Source: a bacterium (lineage in GTDB: Bacteria > Patescibacteriota > Patescibacteriia > UBA9934). From it: DNA of 64,000 nucleotides. A model generated the notes under the pieces. It saw only the letters and a program-made list of their open reading frames with translations. It had not been told where the DNA came from and did not search any database. The position numbers and the translations under genes were made by a program. Location: positions 202 through 64,201 of the forward strand of contig JAQCKO010000005.1 in assembly GCA_027592325.1 (NCBI GenBank). The letters are read 5' to 3'. The first letter of the stretch is position 1. Each line of letters begins with the position of its first letter. Below are positions 30,617-60,275 of this stretch, one piece after another.

Positions 30617-31201
30617 ATGCGTTTACGCCATTTTTTTCTCTATCAAAAACGAGCACTCGGCGTTCTTGCCTCCGTGCTTTTCATTGGCGGCATTGGGCAT
30701 TTTTTTGTGCTTGAACCAACACGCGTCAATGGTACTTCCATGGCGCCCGCGCTCGAGAACAATGAGCGTATTCTGATGGAAAAATTGAGTCTGCTTGTTC
30801 GCGCACCGAAACGCGGACAGCTTGTAGGGGCTTTCGACGCACGCAATGAGCTACTTCTCGTAAAACGCGTTATTGCGCTTCCGGGTGAGCAAGTGGTCAT
30901 TCGCCGCGATGGGCTATACATTGTTGACCGCTACGGCATAGAAGCAAAGCTTGATGAACCATATGTAGACCAAGCCTTAAAAACGCTTCCAAAATATGGG
31001 CAAGAAGCTGTCTATCCTCTGCTACAAGATCATCAGTATTTTCTCATGGGCGATAATCGCGAAAGCAGCGTAGATTCGCGATCATTCGGGGCCGTACATA
31101 GATCAAACATTGTAGGAACGATTTTACGCATTCCTCTGATTGGACGAATTGGTACTACTTCTGATCCTTATTCTGCCCTCACATCAGCACCAATCGACTG
31201 A
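30617..31201 (+). CDS. lepB: Signal peptidase I
   Basis: The catalytic-dyad context is present in the S26 boxes GTSMAPA, VKRVIALPGE and GDNRESSVDSR. Confidence 0.85.
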   Translation: MRLRHFFLYQKRALGVLASVLFIGGIGHFFVLEPTRVNGTSMAPALENNERILMEKLSLLVRAPKRGQLVGAFDARNELLLVKRVIALPGEQVVIRRDGLYIVDRYGIEAKLDEPYVDQALKTLPKYGQEAVYPLLQDHQYFLMGDNRESSVDSRSFGAVHRSNIVGTILRIPLIGRIGTTSDPYSALTSAPID

Positions 31202-32478
31202 AGTTTTCCAAGTAAGTCTTCGTATCCCCGTTCTAAATGATCGAGCCCATCAAGTTTTGACGTCCCTTCCGCAAGAAGCGCTGCAATGACATACGCGAGC
31301 CCCGCACGAATATCGGGCACGGTCATATTTGCTGCCTTGAGTGTACTTGCACCTTTAATAACTGCTGAGTGACGATAATTTTGATCTTTGAAGCGACAAG
31401 GAAGCTCTCCCAAACATTTCGCAAAAAGCGAAATGTCTGCTCCCATTTCATTGAGTGTCTCTGTATATCCAAAACGTTCCTGATAGACCGTTTCATGCAC
31501 CACTGACGTTCCTTCCGCCTGTGTCAGCACCACAACAAATGGTTGCTGCCAATCAGTAGAAAACCCTGGATAAGTGTCCGTTTCGAGTTGTATCCCCTTA
31601 TACGCTTTCTGCCCACCTTTGAACAAAATGCCATCTTCTTGAATGTGATATTCTCCACCGATCATCCGTACAGCATTTAAAAAGGTGATCATATCTTCAT
31701 GGCGAGCTCCTTTCGCAAAAATTTCACCGCCTGTTGCAAGCGCAATGCAACCATAACTCGCCGCTTCAAGCCTATCCGGAATCACCGTGTGCTCGCATCC
31801 GGATAGTTTTGAAACTCCTTGAATTTCAATATGTCGTCCAACGCCGACTTCAATGATCGCTCCCATTTTTTGGAGCATCATAATAAGGCTAATAATCTCT
31901 GGCTCAATCGCTGCATTTTTAATAACTGTTCGTCCTTTCGCGAGCACGCCAGCAAATAACACCGTCTCAGTCGCACCTACGGATGGATACGGCAACTCAA
32001 TGAGAGCACCTTTTAATCCGTCTATTGCAGACACAAAAAAATCATCCTCGCGCACGTCGATCTTTGCCCCCATTTTTTCAAGTGCCATGAGATGAAAATT
32101 GACAGGACGAGGACCAATTTTATCGCCACCCAGCGTTGGCACGGTCGCCTCACCAACGCGATGCAAGAGCGGAGCTACAAGCAAAATTGAAAGACGATTT
32201 TTTCTTGAAAGCGCCATCGCAGACGCATCGGCAATCGATTTTGTCTGCAATGTGAGCGTGTGATCAGTGAGGTCGGTCATGGCACCAACGGTTCCAATCA
32301 GCTCGCGCGCAATGTCGGTTTCTTGCTGAAGTGGACTATTGTGCAATTTTACAACTTCTTCCGTCAACGTACTTGCAATAATCATTTTACTCGCCGCATT
32401 TTTTGCCCCGGCAATTTGCACTTCACCGTTGAGGGCTTTCCCGCCGGTAATTGAAAGATATTCCATAGATATGCCCAT
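31168..32478 (-). CDS. murA: UDP-N-acetylglucosamine 1-carboxyvinyltransferase
   Basis: The EPSP-synthase-like fold and the GAKNAASK motif are present. There is a 34-nt convergent overlap with lepB. Confidence 0.9.
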   Translation of the reverse strand: MGISMEYLSITGGKALNGEVQIAGAKNAASKMIIASTLTEEVVKLHNSPLQQETDIARELIGTVGAMTDLTDHTLTLQTKSIADASAMALSRKNRLSILLVAPLLHRVGEATVPTLGGDKIGPRPVNFHLMALEKMGAKIDVREDDFFVSAIDGLKGALIELPYPSVGATETVLFAGVLAKGRTVIKNAAIEPEIISLIMMLQKMGAIIEVGVGRHIEIQGVSKLSGCEHTVIPDRLEAASYGCIALATGGEIFAKGARHEDMITFLNAVRMIGGEYHIQEDGILFKGGQKAYKGIQLETDTYPGFSTDWQQPFVVVLTQAEGTSVVHETVYQERFGYTETLNEMGADISLFAKCLGELPCRFKDQNYRHSAVIKGASTLKAANMTVPDIRAGLAYVIAALLAEGTSKLDGLDHLERGYEDLLGKLQSIGADVRAE

Positions 32479-32555
32479 AATCTCATGTTCTTCAAGGAGC
32501 GTCTAGGTTGCATCGCTTTGCTCGTTGAAGACGTTAACATCGTACGTTTCAAAAA

Positions 32556-32580
32556 AAAATCACCGAAGGTGAATAACTGG
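32556..32580 (-). terminator. Hairpin plus U9 about 100 nt upstream of the murA start (leader terminator or end of an sRNA)
   Basis: In minus sense ucaccuucggugauuuuuuuuu. Confidence 0.4.
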
Positions 32581-32799
32581 GCGCGGCGCGTAACGCGAAA
32601 TTTGGTTCATACCACATGTGGGCGTAGCGAGCAGCTTGCGATGGAAAGAGCCCTTGCCCCATCTATCGGTCGATTGCACACCATGAACCGCTGAATCCCC
32701 GAGTCTTTCGGTGTCTAGAAAGGGTCGAACAATGTGATCATCGTTTTTATTGGATTCTCAAAAAATGCTTAGCCAATTCGCGTGTACGCGCGGCGCATA
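32581..32799. mobile_element. MITE-like element with 19/20-bp terminal inverted repeats
   Basis: The left terminus is GCGCGGCGCGTAACGCGAA at 32581-32599. The right terminus TTCGCGTGTACGCGCGGCGC at 32777-32796 is its reverse complement with 1 mismatch and 1 indel. The interior is about 177 nt. Confidence 0.5.
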
Positions 32800-32815
32800 G
32801 TAAGCGTACCATACT

Positions 32816-32856
32816 CAAAAAGAAAACGCCCACGAAGGGCGGCTTCTTTTTTTTCG
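32816..32856 (-). terminator. Intrinsic terminator after ndk (also reads as plus-strand)
   Basis: The hairpin cgccc-acgaa-gggcg has T-runs on both sides. Confidence 0.6.
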
Positions 32857-32865
32857 CTCAACAGA

Positions 32866-33324
32866 CTATCCAAGATGGTATTGATCGGTCAGTTTGTCGT
32901 AGCTGAAAACTTCTTCTTCTTTGAAGAAGCGTTTGATTTCTTCTTGCGCATTCTCAAGTGAATCAGAAGCGTGCACAATATTACCGGCAACACTCATGGA
33001 GAAGTCTGCGCGCACAGTTCCTGCATCGGCTTCGAGTGGATTTGTCGCACCGTTGACCTTGCGTACTTCATCAATAGCTCCTACCCCTTCAAAAACGATT
33101 CCAACAACTGGTGTTTGCATCATAAATTCAACGAGCCCCTTGTAAAAGGGCTTATCAACGTGGTGATGATAGTGGTCTGCAAGAACGGTCTCGTCAAGAT
33201 GAATAAGCTTCATTGCAACAATTTTGAGACCCTTTCGCTCGAAGCGAGAAAGAACCTCTCCAACGCGTTCACGTTGAACCGCATCAGGTTTGATTAGGAC
33301 AAGCGTTTTTTGTACATCTGCCAT
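32866..33324 (-). CDS. ndk: Nucleoside diphosphate kinase
   Basis: QKTLVLIKPDAVQR, the NIVHASDS active-site motif and the catalytic His are present. Confidence 0.9.
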   Translation of the reverse strand: MADVQKTLVLIKPDAVQRERVGEVLSRFERKGLKIVAMKLIHLDETVLADHYHHHVDKPFYKGLVEFMMQTPVVGIVFEGVGAIDEVRKVNGATNPLEADAGTVRADFSMSVAGNIVHASDSLENAQEEIKRFFKEEEVFSYDKLTDQYHLG

Positions 33325-38443: not shown

Positions 38444-38569
38444 CAAAGAACGCCTCAGATTGCTTTAGATGCAGGTGCGCCCGCGAGCACCGAAATGTGC
38501 CGTACTGAGCGTACGGTGAATAAGGCGCGGAGCTGCAAGCCTGCAGATGAAATAATCTGAGGCGTCCTA
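38444..38569 (-). repeat. Copy 3 of the intergenic repeat family (divergent), enclosed in a 13-bp inverted repeat
   Basis: The element starts at the leuS TAG stop. In minus sense it reads TAGGACGCCTCAGATT...CATCTGCAGGCTTGCAGCTCCGCG.... The outer inverted repeat is gacgcctcagatt / aatctgaggcgtc. Confidence 0.55.
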
Positions 38570-41557
38570 AACGACAAAGTTCACCAGCTTGTCTGGGACA
38601 AAAATAACCTTCTTCACCTCCCCTTCAAGATACTTCGCCACATGTTCTTCCGCGCGTGCGGCTGCTTCTACCTTCGCTTGATTTGACCCAGCATCCATTT
38701 CAAGTGTTGCGCGTAATTTTCCATTCACCTGCACAGCGATGGTTACTACATCGTCTTTTGTAAGCTCCTCGCTGAATTCCGGCCAGCTGAGCGATTCTAA
38801 AATCTCGTTTCCACCGGTTTTTTCATAGAGCTCATTCGCCACATGCGGCGCAAATGGAACAAGCGTGCGCAAGAACGTATGAAGTGAATCTTTCGAAACC
38901 GATTTTGCCTTATGAAGCTCATTCACATAACTCATCATGGCTGCAACGGCGGTATTGAATGACATTGATTCAATATCAGTGTTGACTTTTTTGAGCATTT
39001 TGTGAAGGGCCGAAGTCAGCTCTTTCGATGCATCATTCGCGATGAATTCCTCAAGGCGCATTACGCGGTCTAAAAATCGCTTTACTCCCATTACCCCATT
39101 TTCACTCCAAGGCGCCGGCTCGGAGAATGGCCCCAAGAAAAGCTCGTACATGCGAAGCGTATCAGCCCCAAAATTCGTGACGATGTCATCAGGATTCACC
39201 ACATTCCCCTTGCTCTTGCTCATTTTCGATCCATCCTCAGCAAGAATAAGCCCGTGACTTCGGCGCGAATGATACGGTTCAGAAACCGGCACATGCCCGC
39301 GATCATGCAGGAATTTATTCCAGAAGCGTGAGTACAAAAGGTGAAGCGTTGTATGCTCCATTCCGCCATTATAAAGATTCACCGGCATCCAGTACTTGAG
39401 CGCCTCTTCACTCGCAAATGCCTCGCTATTGTGCGGATCGGTATAGCGAAGGAAATACCAGCTGGATCCTGCCCAGTTTGGCATGGTATCGGTTTCGCGC
39501 TTCGCTGGACCACCACAAGACGGACATTCGGTATTCACCCAGTCATTAATCGCTGCGAGCGGTGATTCTCCATCATCGGTTGGAAGATATGCATCAATTT
39601 CAGGAAGCACAACCGGTAGCTGGTCGTCAGGAATCGGCACCCAATCACACGCTTCACAGTGAACAAGAGGAATCGGCTCTCCCCAGTAGCGCTGGCGCGA
39701 GAATACCCAATCCCGAAGCTTATACGTCGTCGCCTTTTCTCCTTTGCCAAGCTCTTCGAGCTTGCTGGTAATCCCAGCAATACCTTCTGCGACCGTCATA
39801 CGATCGAATGCACCCGAGTTCACAAGTTTGCCGTCTTTTGCAATAAAGGCTTCATGATCAAGATTAGCCTCATCACCATCAACCACCTGCTTCACCGGCA
39901 AATCATATTTCTTCGCAAAGGCAAAGTCGCGCTCATCATGCGCAGGAACGGCCATCACCGCGCCAGTTCCATAATTCATGAGCACATAATCGGCAACCCA
40001 AATTGGCACATATTCCCCAGTAAGAGGATGCTTGGCATAGGCCCCAGTGAATACGCCGGTTTTTTCTTTCGCGGCATCGCCACGCTCGATATCGGTTTTC
40101 TTTGCCGATGCTTCAATATACGTCTCAACATCCGCGCTCTGCTCATCCGTCGCAAGCTGAAGCGCAAGCGGATGTTCTGGTGCGAGGACCATATAGGTGA
40201 CACCGTAAAGCGTATCAGGACGCGTGGTGAAGACTTCGATTGTCGGCTGAAGGGCATCAAGAAGCGCCACACGATAATCCTCAAGCTCGACGCGGGTTTC
40301 TTCCTCCGTCTGCTCCTTGGGGTACTTTCCAGTTTTTCTATTGATATACAACGAACGAATAGGGAAAAATTCATCCACTGGTTCATGCACCTTGGTCGAC
40401 AGCTGAATGGGTCGCTTACATTCTGTCACCTTTTCTGTTCCATCAGGAAAAATACAAACAAAGACATCATGCCAATGTCCCTCAATAACACCGCCACGCG
40501 CTTCGGCAAGCCCTTTGTAATGCGCGAGCATACGATCGGCAATTTCTCGCTGCGAAAGCGCTGCCTCCTCTTCCTCGGTGACAACGCTCCTTCGCACTTC
40601 AGCCGGGTCCATATCAACCCCTTCGAGTACAAAGGCGGAGTCCATCCCGAGCACCGGAACATCTACATTTCCAGCGTACACCTGTGCCTTCATGCGTGCA
40701 TTTTCAACTAAATCACTTCCCTCATTCACCTCATGCGAATGCATCCCATAATCAACTGCCTCGCGAAGCGCAATATTGCTCCCCTCGCAAACAAAACGAT
40801 TCCGCTCGAGCTTTGCCTCATTTCCCGTCGCCACGAGAACTTCCCGTACCTCACCAAGATCAAATCGAATTTTTGCTCCTTCACTACGCCCAATCCAGTC
40901 TACCTGCTGCTTGGCAATTTTCGGAAGAAAATCGACGGTTTCAAGATCATCAATAAGCCGATCGGCAAATTTAGTAATCGCAATCATCCACTGTTCTTTT
41001 TCGCGCATTTCAACCTCTCCCCCGCAACGTTCGCACGCAGCATTCACCACCTCTTCATTTGCAAGCCCAATTTTGCATGACGTACACCAATTAATCGCTA
41101 TCGTATCTTTATACGCGAGCCCAGCTTTGAAGAACTCTAAAAATTGCCACTGCGTCCATTTGTAATACGCGGGGTCGGTGGTATTCACTTCGCGCGACCA
41201 ATCGAACGAAAGTCCGAGACTTTTGAGCTGACGCCGGAAATTATCGATATTCTCCTTAGTCACGTCTTGCGGCTTCCGGCCCGTTTTGATGGCATAATTC
41301 TCGGTTGGAAGACCAAAGGCATCCCATCCGATTGGATAGAGCACATTATATCCCTCCATGCGGCGCTTACGCGCGATCACGTCAAGCGCGGTATAGCTGC
41401 GCGGATGCCCAACGTGAAGACCTGCTCCAGATGGGAATGGAAATTCAACCAGCAAATAATACGGGTCTTTTTTCGAATCGTTCTTAGCTTCGAAGATTTT
41501 TGCCTCTTCCCAAGTTTTTTGCCATTTTTTATCAATATCGCTGTGATTGTAGCTCAT
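38567..41557 (-). CDS. leuS: Leucyl-tRNA synthetase
   Basis: The HMGH-like motif (GLHVGHPRSY), KMSKS, and the editing and anticodon-binding domains are present. The start is taken at MSYNHSDIDKKWQKTW. The track ORF extends 45 codons further upstream. Confidence 0.9.
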   Translation of the reverse strand: MSYNHSDIDKKWQKTWEEAKIFEAKNDSKKDPYYLLVEFPFPSGAGLHVGHPRSYTALDVIARKRRMEGYNVLYPIGWDAFGLPTENYAIKTGRKPQDVTKENIDNFRRQLKSLGLSFDWSREVNTTDPAYYKWTQWQFLEFFKAGLAYKDTIAINWCTSCKIGLANEEVVNAACERCGGEVEMREKEQWMIAITKFADRLIDDLETVDFLPKIAKQQVDWIGRSEGAKIRFDLGEVREVLVATGNEAKLERNRFVCEGSNIALREAVDYGMHSHEVNEGSDLVENARMKAQVYAGNVDVPVLGMDSAFVLEGVDMDPAEVRRSVVTEEEEAALSQREIADRMLAHYKGLAEARGGVIEGHWHDVFVCIFPDGTEKVTECKRPIQLSTKVHEPVDEFFPIRSLYINRKTGKYPKEQTEEETRVELEDYRVALLDALQPTIEVFTTRPDTLYGVTYMVLAPEHPLALQLATDEQSADVETYIEASAKKTDIERGDAAKEKTGVFTGAYAKHPLTGEYVPIWVADYVLMNYGTGAVMAVPAHDERDFAFAKKYDLPVKQVVDGDEANLDHEAFIAKDGKLVNSGAFDRMTVAEGIAGITSKLEELGKGEKATTYKLRDWVFSRQRYWGEPIPLVHCEACDWVPIPDDQLPVVLPEIDAYLPTDDGESPLAAINDWVNTECPSCGGPAKRETDTMPNWAGSSWYFLRYTDPHNSEAFASEEALKYWMPVNLYNGGMEHTTLHLLYSRFWNKFLHDRGHVPVSEPYHSRRSHGLILAEDGSKMSKSKGNVVNPDDIVTNFGADTLRMYELFLGPFSEPAPWSENGVMGVKRFLDRVMRLEEFIANDASKELTSALHKMLKKVNTDIESMSFNTAVAAMMSYVNELHKAKSVSKDSLHTFLRTLVPFAPHVANELYEKTGGNEILESLSWPEFSEELTKDDVVTIAVQVNGKLRATLEMDAGSNQAKVEAAARAEEHVAKYLEGEVKKVIFVPDKLVNFVV

Positions 41558-41574
41558 ACTTCTGCTCAAATAAG

Positions 41575-41592
41575 ATAGCGCTACTGTAGCGC
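41575..41592. promoter_or_regulatory. Perfect 7-1-7 palindrome GCGCTAC-T-GTAGCGC about 20 nt upstream of the leuS start
   Basis: The operator-like dyad lies between candidate -35 and -10 elements. Confidence 0.35.
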
Positions 41593-41911
41593 GCTCATTG
41601 ACGTTCTGTAAAGGATTTCGCACCCTTTCTTTCGCAAAGGAGGTGCCCATGCGGTACTTGAACCCAAGGAATGTCCTTGAGGACTTTCCCATATGGCTGA
41701 TCGATGAATGGGGGATTGCTCATCATTGTTATCGCAATTGCCCTCATCGCATATAATTTCGCGATGCTGAAGTATTCAAAGATTGAACGCAGGTTCAACC
41801 TTCAGGCGCACCGGTGCTTTCGTACTGGTGTCGTCACGCTCCCGTTCACGGTAGACATGTTCATGCTCGCCTTGTGGAGCATCGCGCGCCGTATGGTGAC
41901 GCGCATCTTGC

Positions 41912-52885: not shown

Positions 52886-52892
52886 AAGAGGA

Positions 52893-53011
52893 CCGCTCAG
52901 ATTGCCTGAGATGACGGTGCAATTCGAGGACCAAAGTGAGGCGTACTTTCTGGTACGTTGAACGAGGACCGGAGAATTAAGCCGTCAGATTAGGTAAGCT
53001 GTGCGGTCCTA
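52893..53011 (-). repeat. Copy 7 of the intergenic repeat family
   Basis: The element starts at the proS TAG stop. In minus sense it reads TAGGACCGCACAGCTTACCTAATCTGACGGCTTAATTCTCCGGTCCTCGTTCAACGTACCAGAAAGTACGCCTCAC...CATCTCAGGCAATCT. Confidence 0.8.
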
Positions 53012-54256
53012 GACGTTCTCTTCCACCAACATCTGCGCGGCTCGTTCTACCGCCTCTCCCAAATCCCAAATACCGCTCTCTCCGCTTGAGCGATCTTTCC
53101 ACTCAACCCCGCCAGCCTCAAGCGATTTTTTTGACACCAAAATGCGTACTGGGCATCCAATCAAATCGGCATCTTTGAGTTTTGCTCCTGGCGATGCATC
53201 AGCGCGGTCGTCGAAAAGCACCTCAAGACCAGCATCCTGCAAATCAGCGTAGAGGCTCTCTGCCTGCGCCATTTCATCTTCTCCTAATGCAACCAAATGC
53301 ACATGATACGGCGCCACTTCTTTTGGCCAAACCATTCCGTCATCGTCTGCAAGCACCTCGACAATCGATCCCATTAAACGCGAAATACCAATTCCATAGC
53401 AGCCCATAATCACATCGATATTCTTCCCTTCCGCACTATTCACGGTGAAATCGAATGCATGTGAGAATCGACATTCAAGCGGGAAAATATTCCCCACCTC
53501 AATCGCCTTTTTTATCTCATATTTCTCCTCATTCGCATGATCCGCTTCTTCAATAACCTCTTTGTTGAACGCTTCTCCCGTTTCGCGATCAATGTAAATA
53601 TGATCTTCGCCGGCTTCGGTCGCTACCTGAAATTCATGCGAATGCTTTTCGGTGAACACACCTCCCGAAGCTGCCGCAACAATAGCGTCAAGTCCGCAAC
53701 GTTTGTACACATTCAAATAGGCCTCTTTCATGCGTTCGTAATAGGCAAGAAAATCTTCTTCGGTAAGATGAAAGCTATACAAATCTTTCATAAGAAATTC
53801 ACGCCCGCGCAAAATCCCTGACTTTGCCCGTGGTTCATTCCGGAATTTATCGCGCATCTGATAAACGGCAACGGGAAAATCTTTATACGAATTTGCAAAG
53901 CTTTGCACAAGCGGCGTAATCACCTCTTCTGCCGTCGAGCTTAGCGCATATTCTTTCGATCCTGACCCTTCCGTTTTGAACAGCACATCGATTTTTTCCC
54001 AACGACCCGTCGCGTCATAAAGCGCTTTGGGATGAAGGAGAGGCATCGTTATTTCTTGCGCTCCAGTAGCATCCATTTCTTCTCGCACAATGGCTTCGAT
54101 CTTTCGAAGCGTACGAAGGCCAAGCGGCAAAAAGCTATACACTCCCGCAGCAAGCTGCTGCACAAATCCTGCCTGTGCTAAAAAGCGGGCATTTTTGCTA
54201 TCACTATCGGCTGGCGCTTCTTTGCGCGTTTTGGTAAACATCTTCGAATATCGCAT
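53009..54256 (-). CDS. proS: Prolyl-tRNA synthetase, short form without the INS editing domain
   Basis: Class II motifs and a ProRS anticodon-binding domain are present. The protein is about 415 aa. Confidence 0.85.
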   Translation of the reverse strand: MRYSKMFTKTRKEAPADSDSKNARFLAQAGFVQQLAAGVYSFLPLGLRTLRKIEAIVREEMDATGAQEITMPLLHPKALYDATGRWEKIDVLFKTEGSGSKEYALSSTAEEVITPLVQSFANSYKDFPVAVYQMRDKFRNEPRAKSGILRGREFLMKDLYSFHLTEEDFLAYYERMKEAYLNVYKRCGLDAIVAAASGGVFTEKHSHEFQVATEAGEDHIYIDRETGEAFNKEVIEEADHANEEKYEIKKAIEVGNIFPLECRFSHAFDFTVNSAEGKNIDVIMGCYGIGISRLMGSIVEVLADDDGMVWPKEVAPYHVHLVALGEDEMAQAESLYADLQDAGLEVLFDDRADASPGAKLKDADLIGCPVRILVSKKSLEAGGVEWKDRSSGESGIWDLGEAVERAAQMLVEENV

Positions 54257-54267
54257 ACACATGGAGC

Positions 54268-59960: not shown

Positions 59961-60090
59961 GATCGTTATTCGTCATCCCTGCGAAGGCAGGGATCCATCC
60001 CGCCCTTCGCGAAGAGCGGGATCCAGCGTATGCAAGATAATTTGATAGATTCCCGCCTTCGCGGGAATGACGCATTCGCGTCTATAAGAA
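59961..60090. repeat. Cluster of three GC-rich REP-like hairpins (aatgacg family), copy R2
   Basis: The hairpins are atccctgc-gaag-gcagggat, atcccgc...gcgggat and attcccgc-cttc-gcgggaatgacg. They yield spurious ORFs such as ...DSRLRGNDA.... Confidence 0.75.
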
Positions 60091-60118: not shown

Positions 60119-60194
<76 letters not shown>

Positions 60195-60198
60195 GCCC

Positions 60199-60275
60199 TG
60201 GTGCAGCGTGAGGGATTCGAACCCCCGACCTTCTGGTCCGAAGCCAGACGCTCTATCCAGCTAAGCTAACGCTGC
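60199..60275 (-). tRNA. tRNA-Arg (anticodon TCG)
   Basis: The cloverleaf has a CTTCGGA anticodon loop, a GGTTCGAATCC T-arm and a CCA end. Confidence 0.75.

Follow-up and report, generated by a model that had tools for sequence, protein, structure and literature searches.

We analyzed a 64,000-nt stretch of a patescibacterial genome (contig JAQCKO010000005.1 of GenBank assembly GCA_027592325.1; hereafter the window), and conclude that the minus strand of the spacer between ndk and murA very probably encodes a free-standing, structured noncoding RNA (ncRNA) that is conserved beside ndk in a subclade of Candidatus Uhrbacteria and acts in trans. The spacer is 399 nt long and both genes lie on the minus strand, so transcription runs from high to low coordinates. 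An initial annotation, made from the sequence alone, had read the same segment as a mobile element resembling a miniature inverted-repeat transposable element (MITE) and, failing that, as a structured leader or small RNA (sRNA). We find that its supposed terminal inverted repeats (TIRs) are the two strands of the closing helix (P1) of the RNA, and that the palindrome between them is a small hairpin (P4). The RNA family is uncatalogued: it has no match in Rfam 15 and no literature on it was found. The conclusion is carried by the synteny of the related loci, by compensatory base changes in the helices and by transcription signals that frame the same unit in its relatives.

Conservation and synteny of the ndk-murA spacer

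The landmarks noticed in the window copy are real. The sequence GCGCGGCGCGTAACGCGAA lies at 32581-32599 and its partner at 32777-32796, the 10-bp palindrome CCACATGTGG is present at 32612-32621, a terminator scan detects both hairpins between which the element had been placed (the ndk terminator and a hairpin followed by nine U residues, hairpin-U9), and Pfam matches confirm the identity of both neighboring genes. The arms had been called near-perfect over 19-20 bp. This holds if one 1-nt bulge is accepted, but the gapless inverted core found by repeat search measures only 17 nt with 82% complementarity (32576-32592 with 32785-32801); RNA folding lengthens the helix between the arms to approximately 20-24 bp. 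Such arms are unexceptional by themselves, as 37 pairs of inverted repeats that are 16 nt or longer and at most 400 nt apart were counted in the window, and the z-score of the minus-strand fold reaches only -2.3 to -2.6. Because inverted repeat and fold z-score alone barely exceed chance, the significance of the element rests wholly on the comparison with its relatives.

For this comparison, 80 murA loci from species-representative genomes were collected, to which metagenome and assembly loci were added later; the copy counts given below refer to the window and these related loci. In most Uhrbacteria ndk lies upstream of murA, with a gap that varies from 9 nt to more than 3 kb, and all ndk-murA spacers of 370-640 nt hold a homologous segment of approximately 230 nt. 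These segments share the blocks GUAAUUGGCC, UGAAAGGAUCC, CUGCG-N6-CGCAG, GCGGGGAUCCAGCGGU, GGGC-N4-GCUC and GCCCACAUGUGGCAGAGGACCAAUU, with GATAAT or TATAGT before them and a terminator after them. The family comprises 23 distinct loci, i.e., the window and 22 other Candidatus Uhrbacteria loci. Iterated nhmmer searches together with a covariance model (R1) found exactly one copy per locus in 22 of them and no second copy anywhere scanned, and the remaining member, L011, is a short variant detected by the hidden Markov model (HMM) only. The window copy is matched at 32572-32798 of the minus strand with 127.7 bits (E = 4.5e-38). A metagenome pattern scan returned 22 loci, nine of which are true members and two carry new sequences, while no more distant members emerged when all collected loci were searched with a group-B HMM and with regular expressions.

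The window copy is 45-53% identical to the other members, compared to 69-76% for MurA, and the divergence follows that of the host genes. The genome of the window, whose contig corresponds to scaffold_479 of ENA ERZ23495042, stands close to Candidatus Uhrbacteria; its best MurA relatives (75-76% identical) are labeled Uhrbacteria or Parcubacteria. Within the approximately 230-nt RNA, 46 positions are conserved to at least 90%. Public records call no gene in the ndk-murA spacer, and no conserved open reading frame (ORF) was found among the homologues. The initial annotation had stated that the interior lacks an ORF, which is roughly correct: a mechanical ORF of 69 amino acids at 32485-32694 of the plus strand runs into the element and overlaps the murA start on the opposite strand, yet it is unconserved in the homologues and almost certainly no gene.

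The position of the RNA is tied to ndk. In 21 of the 23 loci it lies just 3' of ndk on the same strand, usually at a distance of approximately 100 nt (almost always 40-300 nt), and where other genes part ndk from murA the RNA remains beside ndk, at 38-300 nt. The conserved order of the neighborhood is comEC, a gene with a metallo-beta-lactamase (MBL) fold, ndk, the RNA and, further on, murA and rpsL/rpsG/fusA. L011 is an exception, as its RNA adjoins murA at 1.4 kb from ndk. The promoter and the RNA of L007 are inverted together as one unit within the ndk-murA interval, pointing toward the 3' end of ndk; this sole inverted copy (1262-1492 on the minus strand of that locus) is followed by approximately 130 nt of unusual C-rich sequence before the terminator.

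Covariation and architecture of the RNA

The helices are maintained by compensatory changes. We counted base pairs in a covariance-model alignment of 22 sequences with 31 pairs in seven helices and compared the result with 500 shuffles. Standard pairs fill 92.6% of the cells against a shuffled mean of 80.9%, a percentage that is somewhat inflated by the fitting of the alignment to the core helices of the model, 21 of the 31 pairs have changed on both sides against a shuffled mean of 11.4, and the covariation score amounts to 0.404 against 0.191. None of the 500 shuffles reaches the observed value in any of the three measures. In a control with the 3' partner slid by one to three columns, pairing drops to 29-46%. 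Individual helices illustrate the pattern well. In seven sequences, among them the window copy, the P2 helix reads GAAUCC/GGAUUC in place of GGAUCC/GGAUCC, a compensatory exchange. P2b (helix 3) is 100% paired with five pair types and double changes at four of its five pairs, all five pairs of P2c show double changes, and the distal P1 pairs AAUUGG/CCAAUU (helix 1 of the alignment) covary as well. At one pair of the P3 tip (helix 6) a G-U is found in 19 of 20 cells. Overall, G-U pairs make up approximately 72 of the 661 paired cells (~11%). Because these cells would read as A-C mismatches on the other strand, the sense strand must be the minus strand of the window.

The outer part of P1 and the P3 stem were approached differently. 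Register shifts in P1 and P3 defeated RNAalifold and column pairing, and we therefore used alignment-free tests in which cognate duplexes are compared with non-cognate ones. The alignment is unbiased toward both stems, because neither was part of the covariance model. For outer P1, the cognate duplex has -24.7 kcal/mol compared to -14.2 kcal/mol with partners from other species (permutation p < 1e-4), and the own partner always ranks between first and fourth out of 20. For the window copy, the cognate duplex reaches -30.1 kcal/mol against a row median of -11.8 kcal/mol. The two halves of P3 likewise prefer each other (cognate -14.2, non-cognate -9.0 kcal/mol; permutation p < 1e-4).

This behavior of P1 bears on the idea that the segment is a non-autonomous, MITE-like transposable element with the 19-20-bp arms as its TIRs, an idea to which we now give almost no credence. 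It was suggested by near-perfect inverted termini around approximately 177 nt without a gene, and in some relatives ndk and murA are just 9-95 nt apart, which resembles an empty site. The outer P1 strands, however, vary by species and still match their own partner strand. Since the sequence varies while the complementarity to the own partner persists, the arms display helix covariation and not a conserved transposase-binding end. The interior helices covary too, and the unit bears its own promoter and terminator signals. Further copies of the terminus and a target-site duplication, which a mobile element would lead one to look for, were not found: the 19-mer occurs once in the window and its 12-mer core only at the two arms, each related locus holds one syntenic copy, and no direct repeat of 3-10 nt lies within 3 nt of either end. 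Phage and plasmid collections gave no blastn match to the RNA, and viral contigs no true match; two pattern matches in viral contigs are regarded as chance, because the covariance model does not score them.

The minimum free energy folds computed for single members share one architecture, which is given for the window copy in Table 1. The structured part comprises approximately 216 nt (32581-32796). P1 closes the molecule, and the core follows in the order J1/2, P2 enclosing two or three hairpins, J2/3, P3, P4 and J4/1 (consensus AGAGGA). P3 forms a long hairpin in all 20 members folded; in L109 it shrinks to approximately 14 nt. The small hairpin P4 occurs in relatives in variants such as CCCCAAUAGGGG, CCUACAUAGG and CCCUCAUGGGG. 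Every helix is kept in the window copy in spite of its low identity to the other members. A pseudoknot scan over all column pairs of alignment A4 returned only signals of the split between groups A and B (e.g., A211-U216 changed to G-C), none of them convincing.

On the minus strand, the features of the window are arranged as follows: the ndk stop, the ndk terminator, approximately 30 nt containing a -10-like element, the RNA (32796 to 32581), hairpin-U9 (32572 to 32551), a spacer of 84 nt and the murA start.

Table 1. Predicted RNA and its surroundings in the window.
Feature	Position	Strand	Remarks
Putative primary transcript, ~245 nt	32551-32796	-	spans nucleotide 1 of P1 through the last U of U9; 5' end may lie up to ~7 nt further upstream
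P1, 5' strand, GCGCCGCGCGUACACGCGAAUUGG	32773-32796	-	right-hand 'TIR' of the initial annotation; folds and cognate duplex test
P1, 3' strand, CCAAAUUUCGCGUUACGCGCCGCGC	32581-32605	-	left-hand 'TIR' of the initial annotation; folds and cognate duplex test
J1/2	32758-32772	-	family consensus ...UGAAAG; window copy deviates: UUUUGA(G)
P2, 5' strand, GAAUCC	32752-32757	-	helix 2, 99.2% paired
P2, 3' strand, GGAUUC	32693-32698	-	helix 2 of the pair count
P2b, hairpin AACGAUG-AUCA-CAUUGUU	32728-32745	-	family consensus CUGCG-N6-CGCAG; window copy fully compensated
Helix 4 and P2c, hairpin CGA..CUUUC-loop-GAAAG..UCG	32700-32727	-	helices 4 and 5
J2/3, AGCGGU	32687-32692	-	invariant or near-invariant columns
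P3, long irregular hairpin	32625-32686	-	tip (N)GGGC-NNNN-GCUC(N) at 32647-32660 with a conserved G-U pair
P4, small hairpin with palindrome CCACATGTGG	32611-32624	-	helix 7; family pattern CCC-ACAU(n)-GGG
Candidate extended -10-like promoter element TGGTACGCT, overlapping TATGGT	32803-32811	-	6-11 nt upstream of P1
Intrinsic terminator of the RNA, hairpin UCACCUUCGGUGA and U9	32551-32572	-	terminator scan; stem 32572-32560, then T9
ndk terminator, hairpin and U-run	32827-32841	-	scores on both strands in the terminator scan; separates ndk from the promoter of the RNA
ndk	32866-33324	-	conserved upstream neighbor of the RNA; Pfam NDK match
murA	31168-32466	-	downstream neighbor in the window genome; Pfam EPSP_synthase match

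Transcription signals and rival accounts of the transcript

The RNA appears to be a transcription unit of its own. A -10-like hexamer with at least four of six matches to the consensus ends 4-11 nt before P1 in all 23 members, often with TTGnnn 16-18 nt upstream of it. A terminator after P1 was detected by script in 18 of the 23 members and is also present in the window copy and, by eye, in two others, which gives approximately 21 of 23. The orientation of both signals, which are consensus matches only, agrees with the minus strand, the distance between P1 and the terminator hairpin is 8-25 nt, and P1 and the terminator stem do not overlap. The hairpin-U9, described initially as lying upstream of murA, thus exists but is better taken as the 3' terminator of the RNA itself.

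Between P1 and the terminator, (A/G)CCAAAA directly follows P1 in approximately 13 members (e.g., L005:3940-3951, L001:1643-1654 and most of group A), where it looks like a discriminator base with CCA. The window has only CCAGUU at 32575-32580, and group B, L032 and L030 lack the motif. It may signal processing or be related to CCA, or it may merely be the A-tract of the terminator.

With ndk on the same strand directly before the RNA in nearly all loci and a weak promoter in the window, the RNA might also be imagined as a product of the 3' untranslated region of ndk, released by processing after read-through of the ndk terminator instead of being made from a promoter of its own. We hold this to be most unlikely. 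A terminator-like hairpin stands between ndk and the RNA in the window and in other loci, and most members have a strong -10 element (GATAAT or TATAGT) and a -35-like TTGnnn at a fixed distance from P1. In addition, the inverted copy of L007 and the copy of L011, far from ndk, do not fit a transcript derived from ndk.

The terminator is relevant to another account, in which the RNA acts in cis as a riboswitch or leader, with an aptamer in the 5' leader of murA or other cell-wall genes and with the hairpin-U9 as its ligand-controlled terminator. The RNA lies upstream of murA in nine of the 23 loci and of ddl in one, the terminator directly follows the structured domain, and the conservation of the junctions is comparable to that of riboswitch aptamers. 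The downstream gene, however, is not consistent: in ten loci it encodes an unrelated, uncharacterised protein of approximately 430 amino acids without known domain and in one locus an FMN reductase. The position of the RNA follows ndk rather than murA (L011 excepted), the copy of L007 faces the 3' end of ndk, and -10-like elements follow the terminator ahead of the murA start codon. Inspection of the folds gives no evident alternative anti-terminator pairing, because the 20-25-bp P1 does not overlap the terminator stem. A riboswitch or leader is therefore unlikely. Of the two fallback options of the initial annotation, the sRNA stands, whereas the leader is disfavored by the -10-like element and terminator that belong to the RNA, by the varying downstream gene and by the inverted copy.

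The -10-like hexamers before murA (e.g., GGTAGAAT) were seen by eye approximately 9-22 nt before the ATG, at 32467-32550 of the window and in the spacers of L001, L005, L002, L012, L023 and L032. Such short distances suggest that the murA mRNAs of these organisms may be very short-leadered or leaderless.

An association with the ~430-amino-acid protein that often follows the RNA was considered and dropped, since the protein is encoded in 25 loci, some of which have the RNA and some of which lack it, but not in the window. In those 25 loci it constitutes a conserved family of approximately 410-530 amino acids in the ndk-murA interval (e.g., L006:2585-3877, L014:1375-2646 and L105:1565-2863) without sequence match in Pfam, NCBIfam or the PDB. 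Its invariant C-R...R-x-K-x3-S-x3-K-L...D-R-R-G-x-R may resemble the motifs of RelA/SpoT-type nucleotidyltransferases.

Several observations weigh against a free-standing RNA that acts in trans. The distribution is patchy, as about half of the examined Uhrbacteria loci do not have the RNA at this site; among them are loci with a very short ndk-murA gap or with a protein gene right after ndk. The window copy deviates at two highly conserved junctions, where UGAAAG has become UUUGAG (32758-32763) and AGAGGA has become AUGAA (32606-32610), and its promoter is the weakest of the family. The junction changes might reflect a correlated change in tertiary contacts or a drift in function, and because they coincide with the weak promoter the window copy may be drifting. 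The transcript ends, the promoter and the stability of the RNA are deduced from sequence, and the frequent location upstream of murA, with ddl in one locus, leaves room for a cis link to cell-wall genes.

Other inverted repeats of the window were seen in passing. Two related near-palindromes of approximately 120 nt at 38447-38568 and 52889-53010, with arms of 29 and 37 nt, share CCTCAGATTGC...GCAATCTGAGG and a central CGTAC...GTACG hairpin, and each lies immediately 3' of the stop of a minus-strand ORF (38567-41692 and 53009-54262). They are better candidates than the ndk-murA element for a repeat of the repetitive extragenic palindromic (REP) or MITE type, or for a long bidirectional terminator. 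A GC-rich inverted repeat at 59968-60075 (CCCTGCGAAGGCAGGG...), with 32-nt arms of 81% complementarity, lies beside tRNA-Lys and tRNA-Arg (60119-60275, minus strand).

Possible function and comparison with known RNA systems

We propose the following course for the RNA. It would be transcribed from its own promoter and end at its own terminator. P1 would clamp both ends and so protect the molecule from exonucleases and lend it stability, while the invariant junction nucleotides and the P2 domain may form a compact tertiary core. This core would act in trans, most likely as a platform that binds a protein or a small ligand. A ribonucleoprotein (RNP) component or a regulatory RNA is the most likely role, and a catalytic RNA is less likely. 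The level of conservation lies in the range typical of riboswitches, ribozymes and RNP scaffolds, and compensatory changes maintain the architecture across genera in which the RNA is only ~50% identical.

A bolder possibility, which we regard as tentative and rather doubtful, is an undescribed class of complex-folded RNA that is specific to one lineage of the Candidate Phyla Radiation (CPR), Candidatus Uhrbacteria, and whose junction core does a biochemical job (ligand or protein binding, or catalysis) unlike that of any catalogued family. The invariant elements of the core would then be UGAAAG, the GGAUCC helix, AGCGGU, the GGGC-N4-GCUC tip, the ACAU loop and AGAGGA. Much of bacterial diversity belongs to the CPR (Patescibacteria), whose genomes are very small and of which almost none has been cultured. 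If true, a novel biochemical job would be notable in genomes of approximately 1 Mb that keep little dispensable sequence. In any case, the family offers a synthesizable target and a covariance model for surveying CPR genomes. It also illustrates that, in a compact genome, inverted repeats that look like TIRs can be the strands of a helix that closes an RNA.

The comparison with known RNA classes is mostly negative. With the 4227 covariance models of Rfam 15 at gathering thresholds, only tRNAs are found in the whole window; a permissive scan of the region gives at best 21.7 bits, with matches that either cover the flanking terminators or just touch the RNA at its ends. In six related loci, Rfam gives nothing at E ≤ 1. 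At E ≤ 10 neither of two typical members has a match on the RNA strand (L005 has three low-scoring matches on the opposite strand, L014 none). ARAGORN found no transfer-messenger RNA (tmRNA), and a literature search yielded nothing on this RNA, nor on ncRNAs of the CPR beyond rRNA and tRNA.

These results bear on the explanation that the RNA is a highly divergent housekeeping RNA (6S RNA, RNase P RNA, signal recognition particle (SRP) RNA or tmRNA) missed by the Rfam models in the CPR. Paired 5' and 3' ends, promoter and terminator signals of its own and a length of approximately 200-280 nt are reminiscent of such RNAs, the long closing stem recalls 6S RNA, and the (A/G)CCA straight after P1 in many members is like the 3' end of a tRNA or tmRNA. 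We nevertheless consider this explanation very unlikely. Apart from the silence of the Rfam models on the RNA strand, the NCCA tail is lacking in group B, in L032 and in the window copy, and by inspection a T-arm, the SRP domain-IV motif and a partner for an RNase P P4 pseudoknot are all missing. A P3 of approximately 14 nt in L109 is incompatible with the terminal stem of 6S RNA, and a universal RNA would hardly be missing from the syntenic site in approximately half of the Uhrbacteria loci.

Individual candidates were rejected as well. A tmRNA or tRNA-like molecule was dropped, as the tail is not universal, a T-arm is missing, ARAGORN reports none and the run of A residues is part of the terminator A-tract. 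For RNase P, UGAAAGGAUCC resembles GGAAAGUCC, but its GGAUCC partner lies in the middle of the molecule, and there is neither a long-range pseudoknot of the P4 type nor an Rfam match. GUAAU and GUGAAA pointed to an SRP or Alu-like RNA, for which domain-IV motif and Rfam match are both lacking. Mimicry of the sarcin-ricin loop of 23S rRNA, of which AGAGGACC matches 8 nt, is judged a coincidence, the bases being split between a junction and P1. Finally, retrons carry a1/a2 inverted repeats in their msr-msd region, and no reverse transcriptase gene is located nearby.

Compared to established systems, the RNA combines familiar features in its own way. It resembles MITEs in the short inverted termini around a noncoding intergenic segment of approximately 180 nt, and differs from them as a single-copy, syntenic unit without target-site duplication, with covarying termini and a structured, covarying interior. 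With the terminating riboswitches of cell-envelope genes such as glmS (RF00234) it shares a complex fold with an intrinsic terminator, often upstream of murA or ddl. It differs from these in the lack of an Rfam match, the inconsistent downstream gene, the one inverted copy and a very long P1 that does not compete with the terminator; in addition, a separate promoter seems to serve the downstream gene. 6S RNA (RF00013) is alike as a stand-alone RNA of approximately 200 nt with its own promoter and terminator whose ends meet in a long, bulged closing stem. However, 6S RNA is built of a central bubble and a terminal stem, where the present RNA has a branched P2 domain, P3 and P4, its P3 is nearly dispensable in L109, and Rfam gives no match.

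The last group to compare consists of the orphan large structured ncRNAs of bacteria, such as the raiA motif RNA, Bacteroidales-1 and Chloroflexi-1, which were found by comparative genomics. A cmscan against Rfam 15 gives no match to any of them, and the host lineage Uhrbacteria and the neighborhood of comEC, MBL-fold gene, ndk and RNA are different. The likeness extends to lineage restriction, a conserved site among housekeeping genes and the lack of a known function, as well as to independent transcription, a size of at least ~200 nt, multi-helix junctions, invariant junction nucleotides and strong covariation.

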